DNA from: Thermoplasmata archaeon
GTDB lineage: Archaea > Thermoplasmatota > Thermoplasmata > Lutacidiplasmatales > UBA184
DNA: 59,801 bases
Reading direction: 5' to 3'
Assembly (NCBI GenBank): GCA_035502055.1
Contig: DATJVB010000036.1
Coordinates: 1 to 59,801 of the forward strand
Shown one piece after another: positions 2,420 to 43,959 of the stretch. The translations under genes were made by a program, and so were the position numbers. The notes under the pieces were generated by a model, which was not told the DNA's origin, searched no databases, and saw only the letters and a list, made by a program, of their open reading frames with translations. Position 1 is the first letter of the stretch, and each line of letters begins with the position of its first letter.

Positions 2420-2420
2420 G

Positions 2421-3386: not shown

Positions 3387-3388
3387 CC

Positions 3389-4840
3389 ATGCGGGCGGGC
3401 GGGGCGGTCGGACTCGCGCTCGCGCTGCTCCTGCTCGGGGGGGGACTCGCGAGCCCCTTCGTCGTGCCCGCGCGCGCGGTCCACCCGGCCGACGCGGGGA
3501 GCCCGATCACCATCGAGCTCACGAATCCGTCCCCGGGCTCGACCATTCGCACCGCGACGCCCACGATCTCCGCCTCGTTCTCGGACAGCGACGGGACGAT
3601 CGATGTGAACTCGGTCATCATGCTGGTCGACGGGCGGAACGTCACCGGCCTCGAGGAGGTCACGATCACCCCGACCGGGATCACCTACGCCGTGCCGATC
3701 ATCCTCAGCTTCCGGAACGGCGACCACATGGTCAACGTGACGGCCGCCGACGACTCCGGGCACGAAGCGAAGGCGTCGTGGACGTTCACCGTCAACACCG
3801 CCGCCCCGCCCCCGAGCGAGCTCTCCGGCTTCAGCCTCGAGACCCTCGTCCTCGAGATCGCGATCGGGGGAGCGATCGTCGCGGCCGGCGTCGGGGGGTA
3901 CGTCCTCTACCTCCGCCGGACGAGGAATTTCACGTTCCGGAAGTACTTCGCGACCCACCCGGTCAAGAAGGAGTACGTGACGCTCTACGTTCCGGCCGCC
4001 CTCGCCTTCGTCGTCGTCGTGCTCGGCCTCCTCTGGGTGACGACGACGCCGGGCCTTCCGTTGTTCGCGCCCGAGTACGTCGTCATGGCCGGCCTCTTCG
4101 TCGCACTGACCGCGTACGCCATCGACGCGCGGCGCGAAAAGCAGCGGATACGCACCTACGAGCGCGCGTTCGCCCAGTTCCTGTTCGAGATGGCCGACGC
4201 GATGCGGGGCGGGATCGACCCGGCCAAGGCCGTCGTCGAGCTGTCCAAGAGCAGCGCGAACATCCTTCGGAAGCCGCTCCGGATCGCCGCCGACGGGATC
4301 CTCCTGGGGAGGCCGTTCGACGAGGTGCTCCGGGACATGGTCGCTCCGATGAAGAGCCCTCTCGTCTCGCGGTACGCCCAGCTGATCACCGAGGCGTCGT
4401 CGATCGGGGGCGAGACGTCGGCGGTCGTGTACCGGGCCGCGAAGGACCTCGACGATTTCCTCAAGATCGACGTCGAGCGCGTGAAGCAGCTGATGATGCC
4501 CGTCGCGATCCTGTACGTCGCGTTTGGCGTGCTCGCCGCGGTCCTGTTCGCGCTGCTCTACATCGCCCCCACGCTCGGCTCGATCAACGTGTCGTTCTTC
4601 GGCACCAATCCGCTCGCGACGCCGGGGGTGGGGAACTCGGGCGCTTCCGGCGCGACGGTCCCGAAGCTCGACCCCACCATCCTGAAGCAGCGGTTCTTCG
4701 ATCTCCTGCTGATCGTCTCGCTGGGCACCGGGGCGATCATCGGGGCGTTCACGGAGGGGAAGGCCCGCTACGGTCTTCTCCACTCCCTCGCTCTCATGCT
4801 CGGGACCGCCGTTGCGTTCGCCATCATCTTCCCTGGGTAG
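3389..4840 (+). CDS. Second platform protein (FlaJ/TadC-like T2SSF domain) fused to an N-terminal signal peptide and an extracellular Ig-like domain
   Basis: ATG at 3389 lies in frame inside track ORF 3062..4840 and 2 nt after the upstream stop. It has a signal peptide (MRAGGAVGLALALLLLGGGLASPFVVPARA) and a beta-rich module (PITIELTNPSPGSTIRTATPTISASFSDSDG..WTFTVNT). TM helices and a T2SSF domain follow (FAQFLFEMADAMRGGIDPAKAVVELSK..ITEASSIGGETS). Confidence 0.75.
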   Translation: MRAGGAVGLALALLLLGGGLASPFVVPARAVHPADAGSPITIELTNPSPGSTIRTATPTISASFSDSDGTIDVNSVIMLVDGRNVTGLEEVTITPTGITYAVPIILSFRNGDHMVNVTAADDSGHEAKASWTFTVNTAAPPPSELSGFSLETLVLEIAIGGAIVAAGVGGYVLYLRRTRNFTFRKYFATHPVKKEYVTLYVPAALAFVVVVLGLLWVTTTPGLPLFAPEYVVMAGLFVALTAYAIDARREKQRIRTYERAFAQFLFEMADAMRGGIDPAKAVVELSKSSANILRKPLRIAADGILLGRPFDEVLRDMVAPMKSPLVSRYAQLITEASSIGGETSAVVYRAAKDLDDFLKIDVERVKQLMMPVAILYVAFGVLAAVLFALLYIAPTLGSINVSFFGTNPLATPGVGNSGASGATVPKLDPTILKQRFFDLLLIVSLGTGAIIGAFTEGKARYGLLHSLALMLGTAVAFAIIFPG

Positions 4841-4976
4841 ACGCTCGACGGCCGCCCGGAACCCAAACCGGGCCGGGCGCGGAGGCGTCGACCGGCCGGC
4901 TCGAACGACCGACGACTGGGTGCGGCCCGCTCGCCCACTCGGGGTTCGTGCGATCCGCCGTCCGGCGCCGGGGCGG

Positions 4977-5801
4977 CTAAGTGTAGACGAGCGGCGCGCT
5001 CACGCCGAGGAGGCCATCGCTGTTCGTCACGGTGAGAACGATCGAATCCCCGGAGTGGAGGCCCCCAGGGACCTCGGCGAGCTCGCCGGAATACATCGTG
5101 GTGGTTCCGCCGGACGTAACGGCCCAGCTCCACGAGACGATCGTCGCATTGCCCGACTGGAACGAGTGGCTTCCGTCCAGCACGGGGATGATCGTCAGCC
5201 CGCCTCCGGAGGAGCCGGTCTCGAGCTGGGTCACGATCGGTATCGCCGTCGGGGGGATGAACACCTTCGTGAAGTCGTTGTCGTAGTACGTGAAGGCGTC
5301 GAGCTGGACGTAGTCGGAGTCGTGCAGCACGAACCCCGGCGTGTAGGGCGAATAGTCCGCATCCGCGACGTTGAGGTCGACCCCGATGGTGATCTGGTCC
5401 CGGGCCCCGATATCGAGCTGCTCCCCGGATCCCACGACCCAGCTCTGGACCAGCCCGGTCGTGAGGTTGAGCCCGGTCGCGTTGTACCGCTCGAGCTCCT
5501 GGTGGTTGACGCTGATCGACGTGACATAGGAGGTGTCCAGCGATAGGCTCGCGAGGGTGAAGTCGAACTCGACGTAGTGGGACCCGTCCAACGACAGGGT
5601 CGGTTGCGCGTGGAGGACCACGAGCGACTCGAGGCTCCGCTCCTGGGTGACCTGCTGCTCCGCCTGCAGCTGCTTCTGGTACGACGCCGCGAACGCGGCG
5701 AACGCCGTCGCCGCCGAGACCACGATGAGCACCAGCATCAGGGCCCCGACGATCTCGGAGAGCCCCCACCGGTTGGGCCGGACGGCTCGCACCCGGCGCA
5801 T
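4977..5801 (-). CDS. Pilin-like protein with a class III signal peptide
   Basis: 274 aa. The N-terminus MRRVRAVRPNRWGLSEIVGALMLVLIVVSAATAFAAF has a basic stretch, then G, then LSEIVG and a hydrophobic helix, which is the archaeal prepilin pattern. The rest is beta-rich with NxT/S sequons and a PKD-like C-terminal module. Confidence 0.65.
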   Translation of the reverse strand: MRRVRAVRPNRWGLSEIVGALMLVLIVVSAATAFAAFAASYQKQLQAEQQVTQERSLESLVVLHAQPTLSLDGSHYVEFDFTLASLSLDTSYVTSISVNHQELERYNATGLNLTTGLVQSWVVGSGEQLDIGARDQITIGVDLNVADADYSPYTPGFVLHDSDYVQLDAFTYYDNDFTKVFIPPTAIPIVTQLETGSSGGGLTIIPVLDGSHSFQSGNATIVSWSWAVTSGGTTTMYSGELAEVPGGLHSGDSIVLTVTNSDGLLGVSAPLVYT

Positions 5802-32132: not shown

Positions 32133-34379
32133 ATGCTCGACGGACCGTGGGCCAGCTGGGTCGCGTGGCTCACCGTCTCGGTCGCGCTCACCTGGCTCGT
32201 GGCGGGGATCGTCCTCCTCGTCGTCGGATGGCTCTCGCTCCCGCGCCGGAAGGATCCGAACGCTCCGGCGGCCGGGTCCCGGGGCGGGGGGCGGGGCGTC
32301 CGGATCGCCGGCGGGATCGTCGCGGCCGTCGGCGCGGTGGCGGCCGCTTCGTACCTGCTGGCCCACGGGGCGCCGTGGGAATCCCAGCTTCTCGGGCTGC
32401 CGGTCGTCTCCGTCGGCGGAACCCTCCTCGGGGACCTGTGGGCGGGGTTCGGGTGGCTCGGGGCGGGACTCGCGACCTCCCCGTCCTGGCTTCCCCGGAT
32501 CGTCGGCCAGTTCTTCGCCGCCGTCGACGCGCGCGTCTCCTGGCTCGGCGGCGAGCTTCGCGGCGCGGTCGGGTGGATCACCGCCCGGGCCGACCCGGTC
32601 GTCGCCCCGGCATCGAACGCCGCGTGGGCGGGGATGCTCGGCCTCTTCTGGGGGACGTACGGGACCCTCAACCTGTTCGCCCTCGCGACCGCCGTCGCCG
32701 TCGGCGCGTTCGCCGGATGGATGAGCGGCTCGTCGCGGTGGAAGTTCTCCGGGATCGTCACGTACCTCGGCCTCGATCTGCTCGCCCTCGGCCTCATAGC
32801 ACTCTCGCTCCTCGTGGTCGAGACGTCCCGGAGTCTCTGGGTGGACGCGCTCGGCCTCTGGCTCGTCGGCGTCGAGCTGTTCGGCTTCCTCCTGTTCCTC
32901 GCGTACCAGTTCTACACCCTCGAGTACATCGCCGGCCAGGGACCGCGCCCGGACGCGGTCCCGGCGCCGATCGACGACCGGTGGACGCCGTTCGTCCTGG
33001 TCCAGGTGGCGTCGTTCAACGAGCCCGTCGAGATCGTCGCGCGCTGCCTCGCCTCGGTCGCGCGCCTCGATTACCCGCGCGACCGGTTCGCAGTCCAGCT
33101 CCTCGACGATTCGACGGACCGCGGGACCGTCGCCGAGCTCGAGGCGCTCTGTCAACGACTGGGGGTCGCGTTCCTCCACCGGACCCATCGGCGCGGCTTC
33201 AAGGGCGGGGCCCTCAACGACGGTCTCGCAGCGTTCCCCGGCCGCCCCGACCTCATCGCGATCGTCGACTCTGACTACGTCGTGACCCCGGCGTTCCTTC
33301 GCACCGCGGTCCCGCCGTTCCGCGCGCCGGCCGTCGGGTTCGTCCAGACCCCCCAGGCGTACCGGAACGCGCAGCGGAGCGCGTTCGCCCGCTGGTACGC
33401 GCTGGCGGACGCGTACTTCTACCGCGTCGTCCAGCCGGTGCGCGCGCGCGTCCAATCCCTCATCTTCTGCGGGACGATGGGACTCGTGCGACGGTCGGCC
33501 CTCCGGAGCGCCGGCGGATGGTCGGAGACGTGCGTCACGGAGGACGCGGAGCTCTCGCTCCGGCTGCTCGCCCTTGGTTGGAAGGGGGTCTACCTGCCCA
33601 CGACCGTCGGGTGGGGGCTCGCGCCGGATCTCATGAGCGCGGTCCGGTCCCAGCACCGCCGGTGGGCGTTCGGCGGGCTCCAGATGCTCCGCTCCGGCCG
33701 GACCGACCTGCGCCGGGCGCGCCTCACGCTCCGCCAGCGGATCGACTTCCGCATGGGGGGCCTCTTCTGGGTCGACGGCCTCTTCCTCCTCGGGGTGACG
33801 AGCGCCCTCGCGGCGCTCATGCTCGCGACGTGGTTCGGCGTCACCCTGCGGCTGAGCTCGATCGGGGCCCTCACGCTCCTCGCGCTCGCCCCGTTCCTCC
33901 TCATGCTCGACGGGATCGTGAAGCTCCGCGTCGCGCTCCGCACCACCACGCGCGTCTCGTATCGGGACGTCTTCGGAGTGATGGCGTTCTGGTACGCGAT
34001 CAAGCTCAACGACCTCCGCGCCGCCCTCCGGGGCTGGGCCGGCGCGCGCCTTCCGTTCGTGCGCACCCCGAAGACGTCCGGCCCGCGGCCCAGCCGGGCG
34101 AGCGCGCTCCGGGCGGCCGCGGCCGGCTCGCCGCTCGAGACGGTCCTCGCTTCCGCGATGACCGGCCTCACCGTCGCGACGGCTTACCGCTGGGGCCTCT
34201 TCGACGGCCGGTGGCCCTCGTTCGCGGGCGGCATCCTGCTCGGGTGGGGGGCCTACTACGCGGCCGCGTACTACTCGGCCCTCGGATTCGACTACTTCTC
34301 CCGCCGGACGACGCCCGCGGCGCCGCCTGCGCGCGCCCGAGCTCCGACAGGTCCCACGCCGGGCGCCGTGGGATCGTGA
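32133..34379 (+). CDS. Membrane-embedded processive family-2 glycosyltransferase (cellulose/chitin-synthase-like)
   Basis: 748 aa. An N-terminal multi-TM region precedes a GT-A core with LLDDSTD, IVDSDYV, VQTPQAY, TEDAELSLRL and the Q-x-x-R-W motif (QHRRW). Further TM helices follow. Confidence 0.85.
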   Translation: MLDGPWASWVAWLTVSVALTWLVAGIVLLVVGWLSLPRRKDPNAPAAGSRGGGRGVRIAGGIVAAVGAVAAASYLLAHGAPWESQLLGLPVVSVGGTLLGDLWAGFGWLGAGLATSPSWLPRIVGQFFAAVDARVSWLGGELRGAVGWITARADPVVAPASNAAWAGMLGLFWGTYGTLNLFALATAVAVGAFAGWMSGSSRWKFSGIVTYLGLDLLALGLIALSLLVVETSRSLWVDALGLWLVGVELFGFLLFLAYQFYTLEYIAGQGPRPDAVPAPIDDRWTPFVLVQVASFNEPVEIVARCLASVARLDYPRDRFAVQLLDDSTDRGTVAELEALCQRLGVAFLHRTHRRGFKGGALNDGLAAFPGRPDLIAIVDSDYVVTPAFLRTAVPPFRAPAVGFVQTPQAYRNAQRSAFARWYALADAYFYRVVQPVRARVQSLIFCGTMGLVRRSALRSAGGWSETCVTEDAELSLRLLALGWKGVYLPTTVGWGLAPDLMSAVRSQHRRWAFGGLQMLRSGRTDLRRARLTLRQRIDFRMGGLFWVDGLFLLGVTSALAALMLATWFGVTLRLSSIGALTLLALAPFLLMLDGIVKLRVALRTTTRVSYRDVFGVMAFWYAIKLNDLRAALRGWAGARLPFVRTPKTSGPRPSRASALRAAAAGSPLETVLASAMTGLTVATAYRWGLFDGRWPSFAGGILLGWGAYYAAAYYSALGFDYFSRRTTPAAPPARARAPTGPTPGAVGS

Positions 34380-34430
34380 TCCCGTGCGGCGGTCGATGCC
34401 CGCTTCCCCCCGGCCACCGCGAGAGTGTGC

Positions 34431-34754
34431 TCACCGCCGGATCGGCGCGGAGGGGTCCGGATTCCCACCTCGGCCGACGGGACTTACCCATAGGCTGAGT
34501 TCGTCCCGGCTCCACAATCTCCCCGGCGGTCGGAACGCCCAACTCTCGAGGATCTGAATGAGGCCCTCGCGCTCACCCACTTGATCGATGTCACCGGAAA
34601 CGTACCAACCGCTCGTCTAGACCTCGATGGCCGAACCCCCAACAATCAGGATCGGCCGACCAAGCTCAGTTCCGAGAATCGCGCCAAACCACAGGGTCCT
34701 TTCTGCGCTGTTCCGTGCCTTACGGAGCGCAGACTCAAGATCGAGCGCGTTCAC
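34431..34754 (-). pseudogene. Possible remnant of a nucleotidyltransferase (AbiEii/MNT-like) toxin gene with an in-frame TAG
   Basis: Hand translation gives VNALDLESALRKARNSAERTLWFGAILGTELGRPILIVGGSAIEV*TSGWYVSGDIDQVGEREGLIQILESW.. The GG.A..x(n)..DID pattern resembles the NTase motif. It lies directly 3' of a wHTH gene (20-nt overlap). It is truncated at about 107 codons. Confidence 0.25.
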
Positions 34755-35226
34755 CGGACTTCCGGACCGAGGTCGGAGCACCGGCCCTCGCCAGCACCTG
34801 ATCCTTGCGTCGGCGGCGCCGGAGATCGGCCGCCGTGCGCCTCCGCCCTGGCTCGAACCTCGACAGGTCAATCGGATCGTCCGCGTTCCGGCGGATCGCG
34901 GCCACTGCCCGAAGCTCGCGGCCGCGCGCGCTCGAGACGAGGTCCTCGGACCACGTTACCCGCATGCGCGCTCGGAAGAACCTTCGCAGGTCGGCCTCCC
35001 GCAGTTGCCAGACCGTCGAGCCGTCCCTCCGGGTCGTCTTTGTGACCACGTCGCCCCTGAGAAGCCGCTTCAGTTCCCGGTACACGTTGGGGGGCCTCAT
35101 CTCCACAATCTTGGCGACTCGGTACGCGGTCAGCGGCGAGCTGGAATTGGCCAGGGCGGCGAGTGTGCGGACTCGATCCTCCGAGCCGAAGAGCGCGGCC
35201 AGGCCAGCGTCCACGGGCGTCGGCAT
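34735..35226 (-). CDS. Winged-helix (ArsR/MarR-like) DNA-binding protein, possible antitoxin/regulator
   Basis: ATG at 35226 lies in frame in track ORF 34735..35343. The sequence is MPTPVDAGLAALFGSEDRVRTLAALANSSSPLTAYRVAKIVEMRPPNVYRELKRLLRGDVV. An A/T-rich stretch lies immediately upstream. Confidence 0.6.
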   Translation of the reverse strand: MPTPVDAGLAALFGSEDRVRTLAALANSSSPLTAYRVAKIVEMRPPNVYRELKRLLRGDVVTKTTRRDGSTVWQLREADLRRFFRARMRVTWSEDLVSSARGRELRAVAAIRRNADDPIDLSRFEPGRRRTAADLRRRRRKDQVLARAGAPTSVRKSGERARS

Positions 35227-35354
35227 GTTCCGATAATAGTCAAATCGGCTAATAATGCTGTCTGGCCCGCTCGGACTCCGTCTCCCCCGGCCTCCTAGGC
35301 GCCACCGATGGGCCCGAGTGCTCGGGCCGGCCCGCCGCCCCACAAACGAATGAT

Positions 35355-35369
35355 TGCTCCCGGCAGGGA
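35355..35369 (-). repeat. Degenerate copy of the tRNA-Glu 3' end core (TGCTCCCGGCAGGGA on the plus strand)
   Basis: 13 of 15 identity (or one indel) to the core at 37806. Position verified against the codons of track ORF 35308..35577. Confidence 0.6.
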
Positions 35370-35573
35370 CTTCAGGAAGTTCGAATCCGATCGCGCTGCT
35401 GCGCCAGGCAGGGCGCGGTCCGGTAAGGTGAACAGGTACCCTCTCACGGTCGATCCACGCTTGATCGGAGTCGACCTGCTCTCCGCGGAGGGTGAATGCG
35501 ACATCCGGCGGGAGCCTTCGTCGGGGCAGTCGCCCGATTCAATGATAAATACCATGATAACCATTAGCAGGCG

Positions 35574-35804
35574 GTGAGCGCCAATCCGATGACCAGCATT
35601 CCGGTCCACGCGGACGTTCTCCGTCGTCTGCAGGATCGAAAGACCGGGGGCAAGACCTGGGACGAGTTCCTCCTCGATCTTGTCGAAGACTACGATCCGC
35701 CCGAATGGATCGATGAGATGGAACGGCGGAGGCGGAGTGGTCGGGACATTTCAGGGGCAGCCATCGAGCGGCTGCATTCGGAGTTGAAGCGGCAGGGCCG
35801 ATAG
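35574..35804 (+). CDS. Putative antitoxin of the adjacent RelE-like toxin
   Basis: 76 aa, ending 3 nt before the toxin start. It is a paralog of 37413..37628: compare SIPVHADVLRRLQDRKTGGKTWDEFLLDLVEDYDPPEWIDEMERR with TIQVRSSTRRLLETYRIGGKTYDDVVLDLMEENPPESFFREIERR. Confidence 0.6.
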   Translation: MSANPMTSIPVHADVLRRLQDRKTGGKTWDEFLLDLVEDYDPPEWIDEMERRRRSGRDISGAAIERLHSELKRQGR

Positions 35805-35807
35805 GCT

Positions 35808-36110
35808 GTGCCCGCCCGGTACCTCTTCCGCGGGAAGGCCAGGGACGAGTTCGTGGAACTCCCGGTGAAGGTCCGGGAAGAGTTCCTGTACGCGATACAC
35901 GGCCTGCTCTTCCAGCCGTTCCGGCCCGGCCCGGGCTACCGGGTGAAGGAGCTCCGCGAGGCGGCAGGGCTCTGGCGGCTCCGGCTAAGCGCGTACCCGG
36001 GCGTCCGGGCCTACTACAGCGTGGACGGGGACGTCCTCCGAGTGTACGGCTTCGGCCCCCGACGCGAGTTCTACGACAAGCTACGTGAGAAGGATCGACT
36101 GCAGCGATAG
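35808..36110 (+). CDS. relE: RelE/ParE-superfamily toxin (archaeal RelE-like)
   Basis: 100 aa. LREAAGLWRLRLSAYPGVRAYYSVDGDVLRVYGFGPRREFY matches the RelE core pattern (W/YR.R.G.YR..Y.V....v.v....pR...Y). Confidence 0.8.
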   Translation: MPARYLFRGKARDEFVELPVKVREEFLYAIHGLLFQPFRPGPGYRVKELREAAGLWRLRLSAYPGVRAYYSVDGDVLRVYGFGPRREFYDKLREKDRLQR

Positions 36111-36151
36111 ACCGGAGGAGACTGCGACCGGGCAGGCCCTGGGCTTCTCGT

Positions 36152-36189
36152 GAGAGTCCTCCAGCCGAGCTACCTGCTCCCGGCGGGAA
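36152..36189 (-). repeat. Cassette-boundary repeat: GAGAGTCCTCC box plus the TGCTCCCGGCGGGAA core (copy 2)
   Basis: The core at 36175..36189 is identical to the tRNA 3' end. The 11-nt box at 36152..36162 is identical to the one at 37028..37038. Positions verified with track ORF 36150..36473. Confidence 0.75.
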
Positions 36190-36311
36190 GCACACCCATT
36201 CGAGTCGGAAGCGAACCCATCGACTCCCGCGACGGCGGGCGGGGACTCTCCGGACGATCGCGGGTGGCGCGCCGAGAGGGTGCGAGCGCCGGGCGGCCCT
36301 TCCGGCCCAAC

Positions 36312-36728
36312 TCAGGATCGACCCGCCTTCCTCATCCGGTACGTGCGAATCGGAACGCCGTGTCCGATGTCCATCAGCAGCCGGTCGCCCGTGGCCAACG
36401 CCTCCGATCGTGCCAGGGCCATTCCCGCGAGCTGCGCGTCCACGGTTCCCAGCGCCCGTCCCGCCCGACGTAGGGTCGACTGAAGGGCACCTGCCGAGCG
36501 GGCGTCGGCCGCATCGAACTCCACGGCTTCGTAGGAGGTCTCGAGCAGCTCGAGCTGCTGGCGGTCGCGCGTTCGACCCCCGGCCCGGGAGGTGCCCACC
36601 CAGAGCTCAAAGAGCACGGGGGCGGGCAGTCGAAGCCGATCGCCCTCCGCGTCGATCGCCGCGGCCAGAGCCACGGCCTCGGGCTGGCCCTCCATCAGAT
36701 CGATGAGGAAGCTCGCGTCGAGCAGCAT
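36312..36728 (-). CDS. vapC: PIN-domain toxin VapC
   Basis: 138 aa. MLLDASFLIDLMEG (first acidic residue), PAPVLFELWVG and LATGDRLL are typical PIN/VapC motifs. Confidence 0.85.
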   Translation of the reverse strand: MLLDASFLIDLMEGQPEAVALAAAIDAEGDRLRLPAPVLFELWVGTSRAGGRTRDRQQLELLETSYEAVEFDAADARSAGALQSTLRRAGRALGTVDAQLAGMALARSEALATGDRLLMDIGHGVPIRTYRMRKAGRS

Positions 36729-36729
36729 C

Positions 36730-36942
36730 CTACCGGTCCAGACGTCGGCGCTCCGCTCGATCCTCTGCGACGGCGGCCCTCAGCGCGGCGGCGGCTTCAT
36801 GGCTCAAGACGCCGGCGAAATCCGAAAGTGGCTTCCGACGGGTCAGTCGGAGGACGACTTCGGAGAAGCTTTCGGCCTCTCCCTTCTGGGCCCGAAGTCG
36901 ACGATAGGCCTCGTCGGTTACGGTGATGGTCCGTACCGCCAT
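36730..36942 (-). CDS. vapB: VapB-type antitoxin (archaeal VapB/DUF217-like)
   Basis: 70 aa, ending 1 nt before the vapC start. MAVRTITVTDEAYRRLRAQKGEAESFSEVVLRL matches the archaeal VapB antitoxin pattern (KTI.V.DE.Y.RL...K...ESFS.VI.RL). Confidence 0.8.
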   Translation of the reverse strand: MAVRTITVTDEAYRRLRAQKGEAESFSEVVLRLTRRKPLSDFAGVLSHEAAAALRAAVAEDRAERRRLDR

Positions 36943-37027
36943 GTGTGTTTAAACGTAAACAGGGTATTTGAGCCCACCGAAGCCCCGATCGTAGGAGATG
37001 GACTCCCCGGATCTGGATGGTCATCGG

Positions 37028-37065
37028 GAGAGTCCTCCGGCGTGGGTTCATGCTCCCGGCGGGAA
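37028..37065 (-). repeat. Cassette-boundary repeat: GAGAGTCCTCC box plus the TGCTCCCGGCGGGAA core (copy 3)
   Basis: CATGCTCCCGGCGGGA at 37049..37064 is a 16-nt perfect match to 37804..37819. Positions verified with track ORF 36998..37249. Confidence 0.8.
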
Positions 37066-37132
37066 CCATCCCAAAGATGGTTCAAATCCGGGCTACCGGC
37101 GTATCTGGCTCGGTCCCGGAAAGGGGGGCCCC

Positions 37133-37411
37133 CTAGAACCCCTTCAGCTCGTGGTAGGCGCTCGCCCGGTGGCGGAAGGCGACGATCCGGATCAGGTCCC
37201 CATCCACGCGGTAGAAAGCTCGCCACCGGCCCACGGCCAGGCGCCATAGCCCGGATCGCCCCACCACGGGCCGAAGGTTCAGCTCCGGGTCCCATCCCGT
37301 CGGGTTGCGGACCAGGAGGTCGAACGCACGCCCGAAGGCCAGCTGCCCCCGGCGCGGAAGCCGGGCCAGCTCCCCGTCCGCCCCGCGCTTGAAGCGCAGG
37401 GAGTACGCCAT
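37133..37411 (-). CDS. relE: RelE/ParE-superfamily toxin (archaeal RelE-like)
   Basis: 92 aa. GRSGLWRLAVGRWRAFYRVDGDLIRIVAFRHRASAY is the RelE core pattern. Confidence 0.8.
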   Translation of the reverse strand: MAYSLRFKRGADGELARLPRRGQLAFGRAFDLLVRNPTGWDPELNLRPVVGRSGLWRLAVGRWRAFYRVDGDLIRIVAFRHRASAYHELKGF

Positions 37412-37412
37412 C

Positions 37413-37628
37413 CTACAGCTTCAGGCGCTTGCGCACCCGCTCCCAGGGGACGTCCGGTTCTTCGCGCAGCCTGCGTTCGATCTCCCGGAAGAACGACTCC
37501 GGAGGGTTTTCCTCCATGAGATCGAGCACGACATCGTCGTACGTCTTTCCCCCGATTCGGTAGGTCTCCAGGAGCCGGCGGGTCGAGGAACGCACCTGGA
37601 TGGTGGTGGGCGGGTCGGCCGCAGCCAT
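37413..37628 (-). CDS. Putative antitoxin of the adjacent RelE-like toxin
   Basis: 71 aa, ending 1 nt before the toxin start. It is a paralog of 35574..35804. A CTTAAG A/T box lies about 26 nt upstream. Confidence 0.65.
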   Translation of the reverse strand: MAAADPPTTIQVRSSTRRLLETYRIGGKTYDDVVLDLMEENPPESFFREIERRLREEPDVPWERVRKRLKL

Positions 37629-37805
37629 GAGCGTTCTATGGCCGCTATGGACTTAAGCCTGCCTCTGTCGGTGGGAGCTGCCGGCCCTTCGCCGTCCTGC
37701 CCCCGGACCGCCTTGGCCCCGGTCCAACGTGGGGCCCGGGAATCGAGGGCGAATCGGTTCATGATCGGCCCTCGCGGTCCGCACTCCGCCTGGGAAGGGT
37801 GGCCA

Positions 37806-37880
37806 TGCTCCCGGCGGGATTCGAACCCGCGTTGTCGGGTCGAAGGCCCGATATCCTTGACCGGACTAGACTACGGGAGC
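37806..37880 (-). tRNA. tRNA-Glu (anticodon UUC), 75 nt, no encoded CCA
   Basis: Hand-folded cloverleaf. Acceptor GCUCCCG pairs with CGGGAGC. The D arm is GUCU-AGUCCGGUCAA-GGAU. The anticodon arm is UCGGG-CCUUCGA-CCCGA. The T arm is GCGGG-UUCGAAU-CCCGC, with discriminator A. The sequence was cross-checked against the codons of track ORF 37799..38083. The anticodon loop has C, not U, at position 33. Confidence 0.8.
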
Positions 37881-38158
37881 GCCTCCGGTCCGGAGCCCCC
37901 CGGCCCATGAGGCTTTCTAGGGACCGCGGGAACGGGGCGGCGCGGGTCGAACGAAGACGGCGCCGGCGCTCGATCGGCCGGAGACGATGTCGGTCGTCCG
38001 CGGCGCCGACCGGGGATCGTTTCTCTACCGGACACCCCGTGTGCCTCGGAAACCTACGGTTTATACGGGGGGCCCGCGCATAACCTGCCGTGCGTGGCGC
38101 TGTCGCGCCGCACGACCCCCCCGGCGCGTCCCCCCGCGCGTCCCGCCTGCTTCGCCGG

Positions 38159-38446
38159 ATGGGCACGGCGGCGGCAACGTTCGTCCTGGTCGACCTTCTC
38201 GCGGGGTTCGTGGCGTTCTCGCTGATCGTCCTCGGCACGCTCTGGTACTTCGCCTACTCCTGGACCGTCCTCGCCGGGGAAGCGGCGTCGGCGGGCGGGG
38301 CGTTCGGCACGGCGGCGCAGCTGGCGGACGCGACGGGCCTCCTGTTCGTCCTCCCGATGGCCATCGCCCTCGTCCTGTACCTCGCCCGGTCGGCCTTCCA
38401 GCTCCCGAAGCGCCTCTGGCGGGCCGGGATGGGCACGCCGGGCTAG
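38159..38446 (+). CDS. Small membrane protein
   Basis: This is track ORF 38090..38446; the likely start is ATG at 38159 (MGTAAATFVLVDLLAGFVAFSLIVLGTLWYF). It has 2-3 TM helices. Confidence 0.5.
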   Translation: MGTAAATFVLVDLLAGFVAFSLIVLGTLWYFAYSWTVLAGEAASAGGAFGTAAQLADATGLLFVLPMAIALVLYLARSAFQLPKRLWRAGMGTPG

Positions 38447-38481
38447 GCGATCCTCCGCCCGGCCCGACGACGTCCCGCGCG

Positions 38482-39786
38482 CTAGCCGACGCGCTCCCAC
38501 CGCTCGAGCTTCTGCACGCTCGAGAGCGTCGATCCGCGCCGGATCTCCTCCCGGACGCGGTTCTCGTGCTCCAGCACGTCGAGCGCCCGGTTCGCCACCT
38601 CGCTCGCCCGCTCCCTCGGCACCACCACGAGCCCGCTCGCGTCGCCGACGATCCAGTCCCCGGGGCGGACCTTCTGCCCCCCGACGACGACCTCGACGCC
38701 GATCTCCCCGTGGCCCTTCGGCTCGCCGGCGTTCGGCGAGACGTGCCGGCTGAAGACGGGGAACCCGAGGGCGAGGATCGCGTCGAGGTCGCGGGCCGCC
38801 CCGTCGATCACGACGGCGGCGAGGCCCCGACCGTGGGCGCTCCACGACGCGAGCTCCCCCCAGACCGCCGTCGTGCCGCCGCCCGCGTCGATGACGAGGA
38901 CGTCGCCCGCGTTCGCCCGGTCGATCGCCTCGACCGGCTTCGCCCAGTCGCCGTCGCGGGTGACGACGGTGACGGCCGGCCCGGCGAACCGGACCGTCGC
39001 GTCGGGGAACCTCGGCAGGAGGCCGTGGAGCGCCCCCTGCCGCTGGAGGGCGTCGGAGAGGTTCGGCGTGGAGACCTTGAGGAGCGCCTCGCGGATCCGG
39101 TCCGGACCGTACCGGTGGAACTCGGTCGTCGGGACCGCCTCGCGCGTCTCGATCGCGGTGCGGAGCGCGCGCGTCGCGGCGGCGATGTCGGGGCTCTTCG
39201 TGATCGCGCCGCCGACGATCAGGATCTGGGCCCCGGCCGCGACGGCCGGGGCGACGGTCTCGCTCGTGAGGCCGCCGGCGACCGCGACCGGTACCGGCGA
39301 CGCGTCGGCGAGCGCCTTGAGCTCGGCGAACGGCGTCCGAGCCTGCATCTGCATGTCGATGCCGATGTGCAGGCAGACGGCGGCCGCCCCGAGCGTCGCG
39401 ACCCGTCGGGCCCGGGCCGGGGGGTCGGGGACGTTGAGGAGGTCGACCACGACCTCGGCGCCGTACTTCTCCCCCCCGCGGACCGCCTCGGCGATCGTGT
39501 CGTCATCGGCCGCGCCGAGGACCGTCACCATGTCCGCGCCGGCCTTCGCCGCGATCTCGACCTCGAAGGCGCCGGTGTCCATCACCTTCATGTCGGCGAC
39601 GATCCGGCGACCCGGGCACGCCTTCTTGAGCTCGCGGACCGCGTCGAGCCCCTCGCTCTTGATGAGCGGCGTCCCGGCCTCGACCCAGTCGACGCCCCCG
39701 GCGACCGCCTCCCGGGCGGCGGCGAGCGCCCGGGAGAGGTTCTCGAAGTCGAGGGCGACCTGGAGGACCGGCCGGTCGAGCCGCAT
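38482..39786 (-). CDS. Bifunctional 3-hexulose-6-phosphate synthase (OMP-decarboxylase fold) fused to an RraA-like domain
   Basis: 434 aa. The N-terminal half (LQVALDFENL..WVEAGTPLIKSEG..ADMKVMDTG..AVAGGL..IVGGAITKS) is HPS/KGPDC-like. The C-terminal half (NLSDALQRQGALHG..GDVLVID..AVWGELAS..GLAAVVIDGAARD) is RraA/HMG-aldolase-like. Confidence 0.85.
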   Translation of the reverse strand: MRLDRPVLQVALDFENLSRALAAAREAVAGGVDWVEAGTPLIKSEGLDAVRELKKACPGRRIVADMKVMDTGAFEVEIAAKAGADMVTVLGAADDDTIAEAVRGGEKYGAEVVVDLLNVPDPPARARRVATLGAAAVCLHIGIDMQMQARTPFAELKALADASPVPVAVAGGLTSETVAPAVAAGAQILIVGGAITKSPDIAAATRALRTAIETREAVPTTEFHRYGPDRIREALLKVSTPNLSDALQRQGALHGLLPRFPDATVRFAGPAVTVVTRDGDWAKPVEAIDRANAGDVLVIDAGGGTTAVWGELASWSAHGRGLAAVVIDGAARDLDAILALGFPVFSRHVSPNAGEPKGHGEIGVEVVVGGQKVRPGDWIVGDASGLVVVPRERASEVANRALDVLEHENRVREEIRRGSTLSSVQKLERWERVG

Positions 39787-39842: not shown

Positions 39843-40679
39843 ATGCCGCGGCGCCGGGGCACCATCCGGGTCATCGAGGGCGACGCCCGCCGGCTCGACG
39901 GCCTCGGGGAGGGATCGGTCCATCTCGTCGTCACCTCGCCCCCGTACCCGATGATCCCCGTCTGGGACGCGCTGTTCGCGTCGTGGGGGGCCCGGGGGTT
40001 CGAGGCGATGCACGCCGCCCTCGACGCGGCGTGGGCGGAGGCGGCCCGGGTCCTCGTCCCCGGCGGGCTCCTCGCGATCAACGTGGGCGACGCGCTGCGC
40101 CGGGTCGACGGCGAGTTCCGGCTCTGGCCGAACCAGGCCCGCGTCACCGCGGCGGCGACCCGGCTCGGACTGTCGCCGCTCCCGTACGTCCTGTGGCAGA
40201 AGCCGACGAACCGGCCGAACGCCTACCTCGGATCGGGGTTCCTCCCGCCGAACGCGTACGTCACCCTCGACTGCGAGTACGTCCTCCTCTTCCGGAAGGG
40301 GCCGCCCCGGCGGTACCCTCCCCACGACCCGGACCGGACCGCGAGCCGCTACTCGCGGGCGGACCGGGACGTCTGGTTCAGCCAGGTCTGGACCGGCGTG
40401 ACGGGGGCCCGGCAGGGCCCCGACGGGAACCGGACGAGCGCCTTCCCGGCCGAGCTCCCGCGCCGGCTCGTCCGGATGTTCTCGGTCGTCGGCGAGACGG
40501 TCCTGGACCCGTTCGCCGGCACCGGCACCACCCTGTTCGCCGCGGCCGAAGAGGGCCGGGAGGCGATCGGGGTCGAGCTCGACCCGGTCCGCGCCGAGGC
40601 GCTCAGCCGGCGGGCGGCGGCGTGGAACCGTTTGGCGGCCGCTCGCGCCCCGCGAGCTCCTCGTCGACGGCGCGCTTGA
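39843..40679 (+). CDS. DNA methyltransferase, beta-class N4-cytosine/N6-adenine type
   Basis: 278 aa. Motif IV TSPPY precedes motif I DPFAGTGTT, which is the beta-class order. The FPAELP region is also present. The SPPY form is more typical of N4-cytosine enzymes. Confidence 0.85.
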   Translation: MPRRRGTIRVIEGDARRLDGLGEGSVHLVVTSPPYPMIPVWDALFASWGARGFEAMHAALDAAWAEAARVLVPGGLLAINVGDALRRVDGEFRLWPNQARVTAAATRLGLSPLPYVLWQKPTNRPNAYLGSGFLPPNAYVTLDCEYVLLFRKGPPRRYPPHDPDRTASRYSRADRDVWFSQVWTGVTGARQGPDGNRTSAFPAELPRRLVRMFSVVGETVLDPFAGTGTTLFAAAEEGREAIGVELDPVRAEALSRRAAAWNRLAAARAPRAPRRRRA

Positions 40680-41148
40680 GATAGCCGAGGGCGTGGTCGC
40701 TCAGCCGGTCCATGTGCAGTAAGAGGTAGTGGAGGTACACCCGCTCGGGCCGGCGCGACGGGCCCGGCGGATGGCTCCGCACCCCCGGTCCGCCCGCCGT
40801 CCGCTCCGCCCCCGCTTCCAGCGTCGTCGGGTCGTGCTGGTGCTCCGGTCCGTGGAAGGCGCGTCCGGTGCCCCGCGTGAGCGGCGGGTACACCCGGTCG
40901 ACCGGATCGAGGGCCGCCGCTGGGTCCGCCGCGGCGCCCGCGGGTCCCATGCGCCCCGGGTTCGGACCCTTCGCCGAGACCGGCGGGAGGTGGCCGAGCT
41001 TGTGGGCGAGGTACGGGTGGACGGGCCGCGACGGGTCCTGGAAGTCGGTGATCGGCCGGCCGGCGACGCGCTCGACGATCGTGGTGAGGCTCCAGCTCTC
41101 CCGCCGGCGCGCCGGACCGTCGGCCGTCGACGAGTCCGCCCCCGCCAC
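40603..41148 (-). CDS. Hypothetical protein, last gene of the VirB4 operon
   Basis: GTG at 41148 lies in frame in track ORF 40603..42708, with strong GC3 bias. The sequence is VAGADSS..SWSLTTIVERVAGRPITDFQDPSRPVHPYLAHKLGHLPP...RVYLHYLLLHMDRLSDHALGYLKRAVDEEL. I recognise no domain. The opposite-strand ORF is Arg-rich junk. Confidence 0.4.
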   Translation of the reverse strand: MAGADSSTADGPARRRESWSLTTIVERVAGRPITDFQDPSRPVHPYLAHKLGHLPPVSAKGPNPGRMGPAGAAADPAAALDPVDRVYPPLTRGTGRAFHGPEHQHDPTTLEAGAERTAGGPGVRSHPPGPSRRPERVYLHYLLLHMDRLSDHALGYLKRAVDEELAGRERPPNGSTPPPAG

Positions 41149-41170
41149 GGGCGACCCTCGGCCGCGCCTC

Positions 41171-41177
41171 TGATAAA
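41171..41177 (-). promoter_or_regulatory. TTTATCA box 26 nt upstream of the GTG at 41148
   Basis: An isolated A/T heptamer in the 53-nt gap after the VirB4-like stop. The same TTTATC hexamer occurs upstream of the antiporter gene at 31835..31840. Confidence 0.3.
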
Positions 41178-41201
41178 CGTGCCGTTCGACGGGCACGCGC
41201 G

Positions 41202-42857
41202 CTACGCGGGCCCCGTCGGACGGACGAGGGTCCCCTCGAGCAGCTCGACCTCGGGGGTCGACGCGACGAACGCGAGCGGCAGGTGCGCCGGGCCGACGCG
41301 CAGGAGGCCCTCCGAGTAGCCGACGTCCCGGGCGACCCGGGCCCGCGGAACCCACTCCGCCTCGGCGTCGGTGAGCCGGAAGATCGCCCGGGCCGCGTCC
41401 GAGACGTGCGGGAGGCGCAGGAGGGTGACGTCGCCCAGGTTCCTGAGGAGCGCGCGACCCGGGTCGGTCGTCGCGAAGTCGTCCGGGTCCTGGCTCGCGA
41501 GGACGAGCCCGCCCGCGAAGTGCCGGACGTGGCGCACGAGCCGGTCGAGGAGCGAGAGCGCGGCCGGGTCCCGGGCCAAGAGGTGCGCCTCGTCGACGAG
41601 GACGAGCTTGGGACCGGGCCGGCGGGCGAGCCGGCCCGCGACGGCGTCGAGCAGGAAGGCGAGATGGTACGGCCGGTGCCCGTCGGCGACGTGGCGGAGA
41701 TCGATCGCGACGGGCCCCTCGGACCACCGGACGGTCGTCGGACCGTTGAGCCCGCGGAGCGATCCCGAGACCACGAGCTCGAGGAGGCCGGGGAGCGCGC
41801 CCGGACGGGCGTCGCGCGCGACGCGGTCCTGTAGGTCCGCGAACGTCGGCTCCGCGAGCTCCGCGTACGCCCGGGCGAGCGCCCGGTCGAGGGCGCCCAT
41901 CTCCTCGTCGTTCAGCGACGGGAACAGCGTCCGCAGCTCGAGCGCGGCGCGCGCCGCCTTCTCGGTCCGGTCCCCGAGCGTCGTCGCCGGGTCGAGCGGG
42001 TTGAGCCGGCCCCCGTCGGGGCTCCCGAGGGCGACCACGTCGCCGCCGATCGCGCGCACGAACGGCCCGAACTCGCCGAGCGGGTCGAGGACGACGAGGT
42101 CGAGGTCCGGGTATCGCCAGCGGCTCCGGAGCATCGTCACGGCGGCGAGGAACGACTTCCCCGACCCGGTCGCCCCGAAGATCGCCGACGAGTGGCTCGC
42201 CCGCGCGAACCGGTTGAGGAAGACGGGGGCGGCGTCGTCGAGCGACAGCCCGACGAGGATCCCGCCGGGCTCGGCGACCGCCTCCTCGATGAACGGGAAG
42301 AACGCGGCGACGCCGTCGGTGTGGAGGGTGTGCCAGAACCCCGCCGGCCGGTCCTCCGGGCCCGCGAGCGCCGGGCCGGCGAGGGCGGGGGTCGTCTCGA
42401 ACCGGGGCGGCCGGACGCCGAACCCGAGAGCCGCCGCCCGGCGGGCGACCGTCGACCGGAGCCGCTCCGCCGCCGCGCGCGTCGCGGCGCGCGCCGTGAG
42501 GACCCAGCCGACTCGGTAGAGCCCCTGCTCCCGCGCGGCGACCCGGTCCCCGAGCGCCGTGGCGCTCGCCCGTTCGACCTCGAGGGCGCTCGTCGATCCG
42601 GGGCCGCCGTCGTCCGGCGCGGCGAGCTCGACCGACGCGACCGAGCGGGCCCGTCCGAGCAGCTCGAGCGCCTGCGGACGCGCGATCGGATGCAGGTGCA
42701 TCCGCCACTCGGCCCGGGAGCCGCTCGGCAGGATCCGGCCGACGACCCCGAACGGCACCTCGCTCGGCAGCGAGGAGAGGAGGATCGGCGCCTCGATCCC
42801 CGAGGGGTCCGTCCGGGTGGTCGCGCCCTCGCGTCCCGGGCCGCGTCGCGCGCTCAT
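41202..42857 (-). CDS. VirB4/TrbE/CedB-like conjugation-type ATPase
   Basis: ATG at 42857 lies in frame in track ORF 41202..43199 (MSARRGPG..). Walker A is IFGATGSGKSFLAAV and Walker B is KLVLVDEAHLL. The VLASQDP region is present. The about 230-aa N-terminal domain is of the VirB4 type (FWHTLHTDGVAAFFPFIEE..GILVGLS). The start overlaps the upstream stop (ATGA). Confidence 0.8.
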   Translation of the reverse strand: MSARRGPGREGATTRTDPSGIEAPILLSSLPSEVPFGVVGRILPSGSRAEWRMHLHPIARPQALELLGRARSVASVELAAPDDGGPGSTSALEVERASATALGDRVAAREQGLYRVGWVLTARAATRAAAERLRSTVARRAAALGFGVRPPRFETTPALAGPALAGPEDRPAGFWHTLHTDGVAAFFPFIEEAVAEPGGILVGLSLDDAAPVFLNRFARASHSSAIFGATGSGKSFLAAVTMLRSRWRYPDLDLVVLDPLGEFGPFVRAIGGDVVALGSPDGGRLNPLDPATTLGDRTEKAARAALELRTLFPSLNDEEMGALDRALARAYAELAEPTFADLQDRVARDARPGALPGLLELVVSGSLRGLNGPTTVRWSEGPVAIDLRHVADGHRPYHLAFLLDAVAGRLARRPGPKLVLVDEAHLLARDPAALSLLDRLVRHVRHFAGGLVLASQDPDDFATTDPGRALLRNLGDVTLLRLPHVSDAARAIFRLTDAEAEWVPRARVARDVGYSEGLLRVGPAHLPLAFVASTPEVELLEGTLVRPTGPA

Positions 42858-43189
42858 ACGGCCGTCCGGCCGCGGACCCATCCGGCGATCGGGAGCCCCC
42901 CCAGGCCGAGGATCGGTCCGCCGAGGTGGAGCGCGCCGACGGCCGGCACGGCGAGCGCGACCCAGCCGAGGCCGTAGGCGGCGACGCCCACGGCGGTCCA
43001 TCGGGGGTCCCGCGGGAGCGCTCCGCGGTCCCGGGCGAGCCGCAGGACGATCGTCGCCCCCAGGAGCGCGGCGAGCGCCTCGGCGAGCCCGAGGAAGTAC
43101 GGGACCGCCGCGGCGACGAGCCCGCTCGCGAGCGCCGCGACGGCGATCGTTCCCGGACCGACGGGGCGGTCCCCTCCGCCGTCCGTCAT
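42854..43189 (-). CDS. Small polytopic membrane protein (3-4 TM), unknown; possible VirB3/CedA2-like role
   Basis: ATG at 43189 lies in frame in track ORF 42854..43939. The sequence is MTDGGGDRPVGPGTIAVAALASGLVAAAVPYFLGLAEALAALLGATIVLRL..AVGVAAYGLGWVALAVPAVGALHLGGPILGLGGLPIAGW. There are ATGA overlaps at both ends. Confidence 0.55.
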   Translation of the reverse strand: MTDGGGDRPVGPGTIAVAALASGLVAAAVPYFLGLAEALAALLGATIVLRLARDRGALPRDPRWTAVGVAAYGLGWVALAVPAVGALHLGGPILGLGGLPIAGWVRGRTAV

Positions 43190-43959
43190 GCGCGGCCACC
43201 CGACGGAAAGCCGGCCCGCTCGACGGCGGTCCGAAGGACGGGCCCCGCGAGCCGCGTCGCCGGCACGCCGAGCGTGGCGAGGCGTTCCTCGATCCCCCGC
43301 GCCCGGGACTCGAGCGGGTCGTCCGGCCCCCCCGACGGGCCCGACCAGATCGCGATCTCGATCCGCCGGCGCCGCCGCCGCTGGCAGAGGAGCCGGACGA
43401 GGGCGTCGTACCCCGCGCGTGCGGCCCGCTCGCCCTCCGAGACGGCCGGCCCGGCCGGCAGCCGGAACGCCCGGTCCGACCACGGCTCGCTCGTCACCCG
43501 TACGAAGATCGGCCCGTCGAGGCTCCGCAGGAGCTCGACGTACCCGTCGAACAGCGCCCGGGCATCGGGCGGCGGCAGGTAGGCGACGGGGATCCCGCCC
43601 GCGGCGATGACCACGAGGCGGTGGCCGTCCGGAAGACGGACGACGCGCTCGAGCGGCCGCGCCGGACCCCGCGCGCGGGGGCCCGGGCTCCGGCGTCGCC
43701 GGCGCACCTCGTACGCGACGCGGTCGAGGAGCCGTTCGTCGAGGGTCCGCCCGTCCGATTCGCGCGTCGTGAGGAGGAATCCGCCTCCGAGGAACGGCAG
43801 CCACGCGATCGGACCGACGGCGAGCGCGGCGAGGAGGCCCGCAGTTGCGACGGCGGCGAACCGGAGCGCCGCCCCGGCCGTCGGGAACGGACCGAACCGG
43901 GGTCGCCGCCCGACGGGCGCGGGCAGCGGGATCGCCCACGGACCCGGCGCTTCGCTCAC
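43186..43959 (-). CDS. Membrane-anchored protein (N-terminal TM hairpin plus about 180-aa cytoplasmic domain), unknown
   Basis: GTG at 43959 lies in frame in track ORF 43186..44649 and overlaps the VirB6-like stop (GTGA). The TM hairpin is ALRFAAVATAGLLAALAVGPIAWLPFLGGGFLL. The soluble part is ..VVIAAGGIPVAYLPPPDARALFDGYVELLRSLDGPIFVRVTSEPW... Confidence 0.55.
   Translation of the reverse strand: MSEAPGPWAIPLPAPVGRRPRFGPFPTAGAALRFAAVATAGLLAALAVGPIAWLPFLGGGFLLTTRESDGRTLDERLLDRVAYEVRRRRRSPGPRARGPARPLERVVRLPDGHRLVVIAAGGIPVAYLPPPDARALFDGYVELLRSLDGPIFVRVTSEPWSDRAFRLPAGPAVSEGERAARAGYDALVRLLCQRRRRRRIEIAIWSGPSGGPDDPLESRARGIEERLATLGVPATRLAGPVLRTAVERAGFPSGGRA

Follow-up and report, generated by a model that had tools for sequence, protein, structure and literature searches.

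The window analysed here is a whole stretch of 59,801 nucleotides, positions 1 to 59,801 of contig DATJVB010000036.1 in assembly GCA_035502055.1 of a Thermoplasmata archaeon (Lutacidiplasmatales). It contains an island of small units, mostly type II toxin-antitoxin (TA) pairs, that lie one after another beyond the 3' end of a tRNA-Glu gene and are separated by short copies of that end, here called cores. We describe this array, its counterparts in related genomes, and the kind of recombination that may have built it. Compared sequences are designated by L numbers.

ARAGORN called a single tRNA in the whole window, tRNA-Glu(UUC) (anticodon TTC), at 37806-37880 on the minus strand, with CCA not encoded. 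Its 3'-terminal 14 nt read TCCCGCCGGGAGCA in the tRNA sense and TGCTCCCGGCGGGA on the plus strand, and consist of the last T-loop base, the 3' strand of the T stem, the 3' strand of the acceptor stem and the discriminator base. Exact TGCTCCCGGCGGGA occurs three times in the window, with starts at 37806, 37051 and 36175 and in one shared orientation, and none of 100 dinucleotide-preserving shuffles contained any match. The tRNA call and the scan thus bear out an earlier note, made from the sequence alone, which had recognised a repeat of 14-16 nt derived from the tRNA-Glu 3' end and had proposed that it be mapped. That note also listed a copy at 35355..35369 with one change. This copy stands as an exact core with a 1-nt insertion, flanked by an arm (GGATTCGAACTTCCTGAAGT) homologous to the arm that ends the VapBC cassette of L043 (L043 position 3473); as a gapless match it has two mismatches and alone is not significant (5 matches at up to 2 mismatches, versus 3.35 expected). 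A putative fifth core at the island edge (34428-34441) was rejected, as it has three mismatches, a level at which 40 matches versus 32.5 expected is what chance provides. The features of the locus are, from the tRNA-proximal to the distal side:

38482..39786, minus strand: HPS/OMPdecase-RraA fusion gene, proximal chromosomal flank and synteny anchor
37806..37880, minus strand: tRNA-Glu(UUC) gene, its 3'-terminal 14 nt (37806-37819) forming the proximal, attB/attL-like core (ARAGORN and sequence)
37065..37805, minus strand: cassette A, 741 bp, ribbon-helix-helix (RHH)-type antitoxin (37413-37628) and ParE/RelE toxin (37133-37411)
37051..37064, minus strand: core copy 1, exact 14-mer, with 16 nt identical to the tRNA if the adjoining CA (37049-37050) is counted
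36189..37050, minus strand: cassette B, 862 bp, VapB (36730-36942) and VapC PIN toxin (36312-36728)
36175..36188, minus strand: core copy 2, exact 14-mer
35370..36174, plus strand: cassette C, 805 bp, antitoxin (35574-35804) and ParE/RelE-like toxin (35808-36110), inverted relative to the tRNA
35355..35369, minus strand: core copy 3, degenerate, an exact core with one inserted base, written TGCTCCCGGC[A]GGGA
34442..35354, minus strand: oldest unit, 913 bp, winged helix-turn-helix (wHTH) gene (34735-35343, probable start 35226) and nucleotidyltransferase pseudogene (about 34484-34734)
32133..34379, plus strand: GT2 glycosyltransferase gene (Pfam), distal chromosomal flank, outside the array

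The three intervals between cores measure 741-862 bp and hold one TA pair apiece, in agreement with the ParE/RelE pair, VapBC pair and inverted ParE/RelE paralog that had been read from the sequence. Judged by domain matches and paralogy, each is a predicted type II pair, with a small antitoxin gene adjacent to one for a ParE/RelE or PIN toxin. Against Pfam, 37133-37411 (minus strand) of cassette A matched ParE_toxin (1e-8), and in cassette B 36312-36728 matched PIN (5e-15) and 36730-36942 matched VapB (4e-16), both on the minus strand. The cassette C pair (35574-36110, plus strand) is paralogous to the A pair by pairwise BLASTP (31% identity, E 4e-10; 44%, E 9e-11). Beyond the last copy, the wHTH gene and the suspected nucleotidyltransferase-like remnant were also recovered; the sequence downstream of the wHTH gene, ...VGGSAIEV-stop-TSGWYVSGDIDQV, carries a nucleotidyltransferase-type G-S...D-x-D motif broken by a stop codon (GGSA...stop...SGDID). 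The units of the window are fully taken up by TA, wHTH and nucleotidyltransferase-remnant open reading frames (ORFs). GC content is lower in the island than in its flanks, as had been noticed (0.62-0.70 versus 0.72-0.79). Since the array is repeated at 99.5-100% identity in the independent assemblies L001, L166 and L217, an assembly artefact is ruled out.

The cargo genes come with sequences of their own on both sides. Upstream of the genes of cassette A is a promoter/operator region, GGCTTAAGTCCATAGCGGCCATAGAA. Directly upstream of vapB in cassette B lies a palindrome, GTTTACGTTTAAAC (36947-36960), which is invariant in the window, L047, L037, L043, L089 and L103, in VapBC cassettes that are otherwise only 66-90% identical, and which is probably the VapB operator/promoter. 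At the cassette ends are short arms. Cassette A finishes at its 3' end in a hairpin arm, GAACCATC-tttgg-GATGGTTC, set directly against the next core, while cassette B has a 5' arm (37024-37050) with a GGAGGACTCTC motif and a 3' arm (36189-36230) reading GGGTTCGCTTCC...GAATGGGTGTGCT. Cassette C ends in arms of the B type, of which 36148-36174 resembles the B 5' arm and 35370-35392 the 3' arm of the L043 VapBC cassette. The presence of B-type arms around a different and inverted cargo suggests that the arms are functional "chassis" sequences.

The window was compared with 80 species-representative Thermoplasmata loci, retrieved through the flanking HPS/OMPdecase-RraA gene (72-86% amino acid identity) and inspected over 10 kb to either side of the tRNA. 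With one exception their titles name Thermoplasmata archaea, Ca. Lutacidiplasmatales and Lutacidiplasma among them. The tRNA-Glu gene follows the HPS-RraA gene in most of these loci, at a distance of 60 bp to about 8.5 kb, and in most of them the core exists only as the tRNA copy, which is to say that the site is empty. Seven of the 80 (L028, L037, L043, L047, L050, L060 and L064) have one or two further cores, 780-1789 bp apart or downstream. Across the arrays compared, the invariant part of the core is 12 nt, CCGCCGGGAGCA, and the two bases that precede it vary (TC, TT, CC, TA); at up to one mismatch the background of this 12-mer is 39 matches per 2.2 Mb. Of about 100 related, Lutacidiplasmatales-like loci in the comparison as a whole, roughly a tenth have cassettes delimited by this 12-nt core.

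Further arrays were found in peat and soil metagenomes by protein-led look-ups, and their cassettes occur in permuted orders:

Window: tRNA / A (ParE) / B (VapBC) / C / wHTH unit
L089 and L088: tRNA / B / A / D (RHH-RelE) / E (AbrB-PIN, inverted), then chromosomal genes
L093: ... / D / F (RHH-PIN) / B
L043: tRNA / B / F
L047: tRNA / 1.6-kb membrane-protein unit / B
L037 and L092: tRNA / B / core
L094-L099: tRNA / B, with the distal core lost

Both relative orders are thus seen for A and B, and likewise for B and F. When copies of a cassette are aligned, homology spans promoter/operator and genes and resumes in the short arm beside the distal core (L047, L037, L043, L089). Cassette A, whose operator across genomes reads GGCTTAAGyCCATAGCsGCCATAGAA, is found in L089 at another array position and is homologous there from promoter to stop codon and again over a 15-nt arm by the core. 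For cassette B in L209, the BLASTN alignment runs from window position 37064 to 36175, which is exactly core to core. The same core also carries cargo other than TA pairs, namely a 240-aa His-phosphatase gene (a 780-bp unit), an ADH and MarR pair, and membrane proteins. The cassettes of these arrays are small and, as in integrons, differ between strains in content and order. Comparison with related genomes, which the earlier note had put forward as a check, has shown cassettes to be present or absent and permuted at a site that is mostly empty, and the ending of homology at the cores supports its reading of the locus as the trace of site-specific insertions made one after another into the 3' end of the tRNA.

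These comparisons also bear on another view, in which the locus has no dedicated mobility and is an ancestral TA island inherited vertically, with ordinary homologous or microhomology-mediated recombination and gene conversion reshuffling it and with conversion from the tRNA maintaining the cores. VapBC is indeed syntenic with HPS-RraA and tRNA-Glu in many species, at 66-90% amino acid identity, which is similar to the 72-86% of the flanking gene. However, this view leaves unexplained how each new and unrelated cassette acquired a core and arms, and the stretch of 12-14 nt in which every breakpoint lies offers little length for homologous exchange. Nor does it agree with an empty site in most related genomes. 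We regard it as improbable.

A second set of arrays belongs to a sister lineage of GC about 0.6, found by scanning metagenomes for ATGGG-N5-7-CCCGCCGGGAGCA, a scan that also returned chance matches and unrelated tRNAs. This lineage is represented by about 17 loci, its tRNA-Glu is 87% identical to that of the window, and it has an ADH flank in common with the Thermoplasmata metagenome-assembled genome L077. Beyond the tRNA-Glu gene come units of 1.1-5.4 kb, whose cargo is diverse: SDR, EamA, DyP peroxidase, peroxiredoxin and DsbA; a BNR-like protein; a PEP-utilising enzyme with Lrp; and MerA-like, MerB and HxlR proteins. No integrase was present in any of the sister-lineage cargo units examined. 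Each unit starts with a TATA-like TGCTATTTWTAACACGC and ends with a conserved element of about 150 nt that runs into the core (...CCGGGAACCCGCCGCAAGTACGGCTTCAAAGCCC...TTTCCACTGGCATATCTCTTGATGGGCTTGCCCGGTTTGCTTGCCAATGGGCCGACTTC plus core), as in L176, L158, L155, L212 and others among L120-L239, for example before the cores at 1648 and 2765 of L176 (re-oriented copy, plus strand). Three of these loci document the gain or loss of a single unit:

L200: tRNA / U1 / flank
L158: U1 / U2 / flank
L176: tRNA / U1 / U2 / U3

Among them U1 is 97-100%, U2 99.9% and the flank 98.2% identical, and in these near-identical backgrounds U2 (1117 bp) is precisely present (L158, L176) or absent (L200) at the core. 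Vertical inheritance could account for this polymorphism, in that the direct repeats of about 150 nt could mediate RadA-dependent deletions.

Neither the cassette ends nor the 150-nt element matched a family in Rfam, and the Rfam scan of L176, L212 and L155 hit the tRNA only. RNAalifold placed the core of the element in a tRNA-like acceptor pairing with UUCC..UGGC and gave no covariation, as the sequences are too similar, so a structured RNA or single-stranded DNA is neither supported nor excluded. In L212 (core at about 2868) and L228 (core at about 3192; both re-oriented copies) the element and core stand 270 nt after a thermosome (chaperonin) gene, and no tRNA-Glu was found in the 2.8 kb upstream of this thermosome-adjacent core; this points either to a large unit or to an occurrence of the element at places other than the tRNA. 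In L206 a 3.3-kb unit (core to core 1712-5060, re-oriented copy) combines a MerA-like pyridine-nucleotide disulphide oxidoreductase, a homolog of the alkylmercury lyase MerB and an HxlR-type regulator. Going by these genes, the predicted function of this tRNA-Glu unit is that of a mercury-resistance cassette in an archaeal array.

The ends of the units are informative about the type of recombination. In 11 of 20 cassette 3' arms a T-stem-like pairing is kept just before the acceptor-strand part of the core (typically WTGGG-N5-7-CCCGC, with divergent loops), whereas 1000 shuffles gave a mean of 3.4 and a maximum of 9. One cassette arm compensates a variant of the core (CGGT...ACCG), and in many arms another motif that resembles a T loop, GGGTTCGCNTCC, is found some 20 nt farther upstream. 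Terminal inverted repeats did not rise above shuffled controls in 25 of the 26 units tested. The only unit with inverted-repeat-like termini is a low-GC unit of 1.6 kb in L060 (11435-13023), which encodes a 101-aa ORF and a 190-aa zinc-ribbon ORF and has a palindromic TTCGAACCAAAGTTGGTTCGAA-like sequence at both ends.

It is on these ends that a derivation from transposons or casposons has to be judged. The units would then be non-autonomous, and the 14-nt repeats would have arisen as target-site duplications when a casposase (Cas1-type) or some other transposase acted on the tRNA 3' end. Casposons are found in euryarchaeal hosts and are known in the phylum of the present one; they have direct repeats of 14-15 bp at tRNA 3' ends, occur in tandem arrays, are bounded by terminal inverted repeats and encode Cas1 and PolB. 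Work by Krupovic, by Hickman/Dyda and by Beguin reportedly shows that in Euryarchaeota their insertion beside tRNA genes duplicates 14-15 bp. The length and the tRNA 3'-end position of the repeats described here would fit such duplications, and so would the palindromic, TIR-like ends of the L060 unit. However, the terminal inverted repeats of casposons are missing from the other 25 units, several copies of the core keep only the last 12 nt and vary in the first two, and the asymmetric ends, with a 3' arm that mimics the tRNA T arm, are those expected of attP-derived arms and not of transposon ends. Likewise, the ORF listings downstream of the tRNA, or for other units, had no ORF of the size of Cas1 or a family-B DNA polymerase (PolB), although no search was aimed at Cas1, PolB or a transposase. 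The asymmetry thus fits att-type sites even though 14 nt is the length of a casposon target duplication, and an origin from casposons or transposons appears very improbable to us.

None of the ORFs of the island encodes a recombinase according to Pfam, a motif scan and tblastn, as the earlier note had claimed. The absence extends well beyond the window. No integrase was detected within about 9-10 kb of the tRNA-Glu gene in the roughly 80 species loci, either by motif scan or by tblastn with a Thermoplasmata-type integrase, nor in the annotated neighbourhoods or the metagenome loci, and no unit retained a fragment of one. Since no unit has an integrase, the array is not a set of self-sufficient integrative elements. 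The earlier note had also pointed to an integrase, or an element with a matching att core, as something to look for elsewhere. No integrase-bearing parent element on the same att site was found at tRNA-Glu in about 80 species or in the IMG/VR, phage and plasmid collections, and the island had no BLASTN match among the collected plasmids and phages. Scans of IMG/VR with the tRNA-Glu 3' half (GGTTCRAATCCCGCCGGGAGCA) and with the T-arm variants TGGGN{5,7}CCCGCCGGGAGCA yielded only tRNAs of unrelated phages and giant viruses and chance matches in coding sequence, and were discarded.

Two integrase genes met in the course of these searches were considered and set aside. An integrase ORF in L198 that overlaps a pattern match is a chance match in what appears, from its motifs, to be a bacterial XerC/D-type phage integrase gene. 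The other is a tyrosine recombinase beside a distant VapBC homolog in L103 (3515-4402). It belongs to a large Thermoplasmata family (423 matches, several of them named Thermoplasmata site-specific integrases) that is chromosomal and is not XerA (60-77 bits versus an equivalog cutoff of 220). Family members, also seen in L240 (10001-10870) and L241 (10001-10894), sit among small accessory genes (VapBC, RelE, glyoxalase, DUF1330, GNAT, SnoaL). The L103 integrase was rejected as the enzyme of the array, given that no tRNA, core or repeats lie nearby, no homolog occurs in any tRNA-Glu locus and the family shows no link to the core. By association only, this non-XerA tyrosine recombinase family is a candidate for that role.

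The absence of a recombinase could also mean decay. Under that explanation successive integrase-bearing plasmids or proviruses entered tRNA-Glu and were whittled down by deletion to their TA operons, with the att repeats left behind. It is well documented that elements which integrate in tandem at tRNAs leave behind repeats of part of the tRNA together with degenerate remnants, tycheposon islands (10.1101/2020.12.28.424599) being one example. The oldest unit of the window is visibly decaying, with its nucleotidyltransferase pseudogene and degenerate core, some distal cores of relatives are degenerate or lost, and TA modules are typical survivors of such a process. However, random deletion would not repeatedly yield compact units of 0.6-0.9 kb with both ends intact in many genomes, and the same units with the same arms reappear at different array positions. 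Non-TA units, which are free of addiction selection, share the format. No integrase fragment was detected in any unit, and no full-size integrase-bearing element sits at tRNA-Glu in about 80 related species. We therefore consider decay unlikely. The earlier note had left a choice between decayed elements and miniature cassettes mobilised in trans, and it is the second that permuted orders, private arms, non-TA cassettes, the presence or absence of U2 and the lack of any integrase remnant favour.

We thus favour, with a probability of roughly 0.6, the view that the locus is a tRNA-Glu-anchored array of small recombinase-less cassettes, comparable to integrons and to cis-mobilizable elements (CIMEs), built by site-specific recombination supplied in trans. 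Recombination would take place at a core of 12-14 nt identical to the tRNA 3' end (CCGCCGGGAGCA). Each cassette is made up of a short arm on the 5' side, an operon complete with promoter/operator (in this locus a type II TA system) and an arm on the 3' side, the latter often with a T-arm-like hairpin (GGG-N5-7-CCC) directly before the core. As a circular intermediate with a single core, it would recombine with the intact core of the tRNA or with an internal one, possibly with a preference for the tRNA-proximal site. Such integration would regenerate the tRNA and leave a second core, and repetition of the event would build a one-directional array. Cassettes would be cut out of it or reordered when its cores recombine with each other. 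The TA cargo may stabilise the array against loss. As the enzyme is encoded neither in the array nor near it, it would have to act in trans, and it would most likely be a tyrosine recombinase.

Several observations weigh against this proposal. The 5' spacer of cassette A differs between genomes (about 150 nt versus 23 nt), so that the 5' boundaries of cassettes are not always clean. VapBC lies beside tRNA-Glu in many genomes, some of them without a detectable distal core (L094-L099), which may mean that some of the pattern was inherited vertically long ago. No recombinase was linked to the core, neither a circular junction nor an empty-site read was observed, and no element with a matching attP was found in the IMG/VR, phage and plasmid collections. 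Finally, the integrase screens consisted of a motif regular expression and a single-query tblastn, which very divergent (SSV-type) or non-tyrosine recombinases could escape.

Some features around the tRNA were recorded in passing. In the window 600 bp (37881-38481) separate HPS-RraA and tRNA-Glu, and this spacing includes a 118-aa membrane ORF (38090-38446) without a Pfam match; one related contig has a thermopsin gene in the same interval. As the spacing varies among species (L004-L083), the 5' side of the tRNA is variable too. Upstream of HPS-RraA, window positions 39843-43199 encode an N6_N4 DNA methyltransferase, an ORF of about 180 aa and a DUF87/HerA-like ATPase (551-666 aa), a cluster retained by nearly all relatives (matching parts of L002-L083). 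The tRNA-Glu(UUC) genes of L089 (265-366), L028 (17819-17918) and L043 (2552-2651) are about 100 nt long and contain a canonical intron 3' of the anticodon loop; their 3' end is the same, and ARAGORN misses them or calls them tRNA-Arg.

The array shares features with several known systems. CIMEs, described from integrative and conjugative or integrative and mobilizable elements (ICEs and IMEs) of Firmicutes, have attL/attR-type repeats at a hot spot and no genes for integrase or transfer; they are presumed to be moved by the integrase of a related element, and accrete. They are usually kilobases long, derive from recognisable deletions of ICEs or IMEs, and lie beside a related integrase-bearing element. 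In structure the array corresponds to them, having att-type direct repeats and no recombination or transfer genes, but its units are below 1 kb, no parent element is seen at tRNA-Glu in about 80 species and the host is an archaeon. The pdif modules of Acinetobacter are likewise small, recombinase-less and often TA modules, with short recombination sites and presumably moved by host recombinases. Their sites, however, are 28-bp XerC/XerD sites in alternating orientation on plasmids, unlike tRNA-derived direct repeats on an archaeal chromosome. Tycheposons of Prochlorococcus (10.1101/2020.12.28.424599) integrate at tRNA 3' ends, newer arrivals pushing older ones outward, and accumulate remnants and cargo with partial-tRNA copies between units. 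As in such tandem tRNA islands, the units described here have tRNA-3' direct repeats at both ends and the tRNA is regenerated; unlike in tycheposon islands, no unit contains a recombinase gene and the units act as discrete and reusable cassettes.

In function the array resembles integron cassettes and clusters of attC sites lacking integron-integrases (CALINs), as it does CIMEs. As described with the archaeal integrons (Ghaly et al., 2022; PMC9668308), arrays can lack a neighbouring integrase and be served in trans. As in those systems, the array runs in one direction from a fixed insertion point and is composed of cassettes of 0.6-1 kb, mostly single operons, with a recombination site at the 3' end; TA cassettes are frequent and the order differs between strains. 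However, no R''-R' pair of attC (RYYYAAC / GTTRRRY, 40-150 nt apart) was found on either strand of window positions 34300-37950. The site is instead a copy of the tRNA 3' end with a T-arm-like hairpin, cassettes have their own promoters/operators and lie in either orientation, and the anchor is a functional tRNA gene. Since IntI, attI and attC were each looked for and are not present, the array is not an integron. The main text of PMC9668308 has neither the stem "Thermoplasmat" nor the term "tRNA". No description of such arrays in archaea was found in the literature searched, which took in parts of the dark-matter-islands paper and of PMC9668308 and did not extend to PMC9287336 (Lutacidiplasmatales genomes).

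A broader proposal, which we put forward tentatively and with some doubt, is that soil Thermoplasmata maintain a gene-capture platform, not described before, at this site. The functional tRNA-Glu gene would be the docking site and the equivalent of attI, and cassettes of 0.6-5 kb would use the T-arm/acceptor mimic as their equivalent of attC. Their insertion, excision and reshuffling would be the work of a dedicated recombinase whose gene lies elsewhere on the chromosome. In one lineage the mimic site lies within the conserved element of about 150 nt.

The locus provides a searchable signature, a tRNA-Glu 3' core together with a T-arm-like arm, and with it testable substrates for a recombinase hunt. 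It is also a natural example of recombination sites that mimic a tRNA. For annotation, it indicates that short partial-tRNA repeats can mark discrete cassettes where integrase-based island finders detect nothing. The host order consists of abundant, uncultured archaea of acid soil and peat, and the cargo of its arrays includes, besides TA modules, adaptive genes such as those for mercury resistance, peroxidases and transporters. If the cassettes are indeed mobilised in trans, these arrays would give archaea a second way to capture genes as integrons do, mechanistically distinct from that of the attC/IntI integrons reported in 2022.

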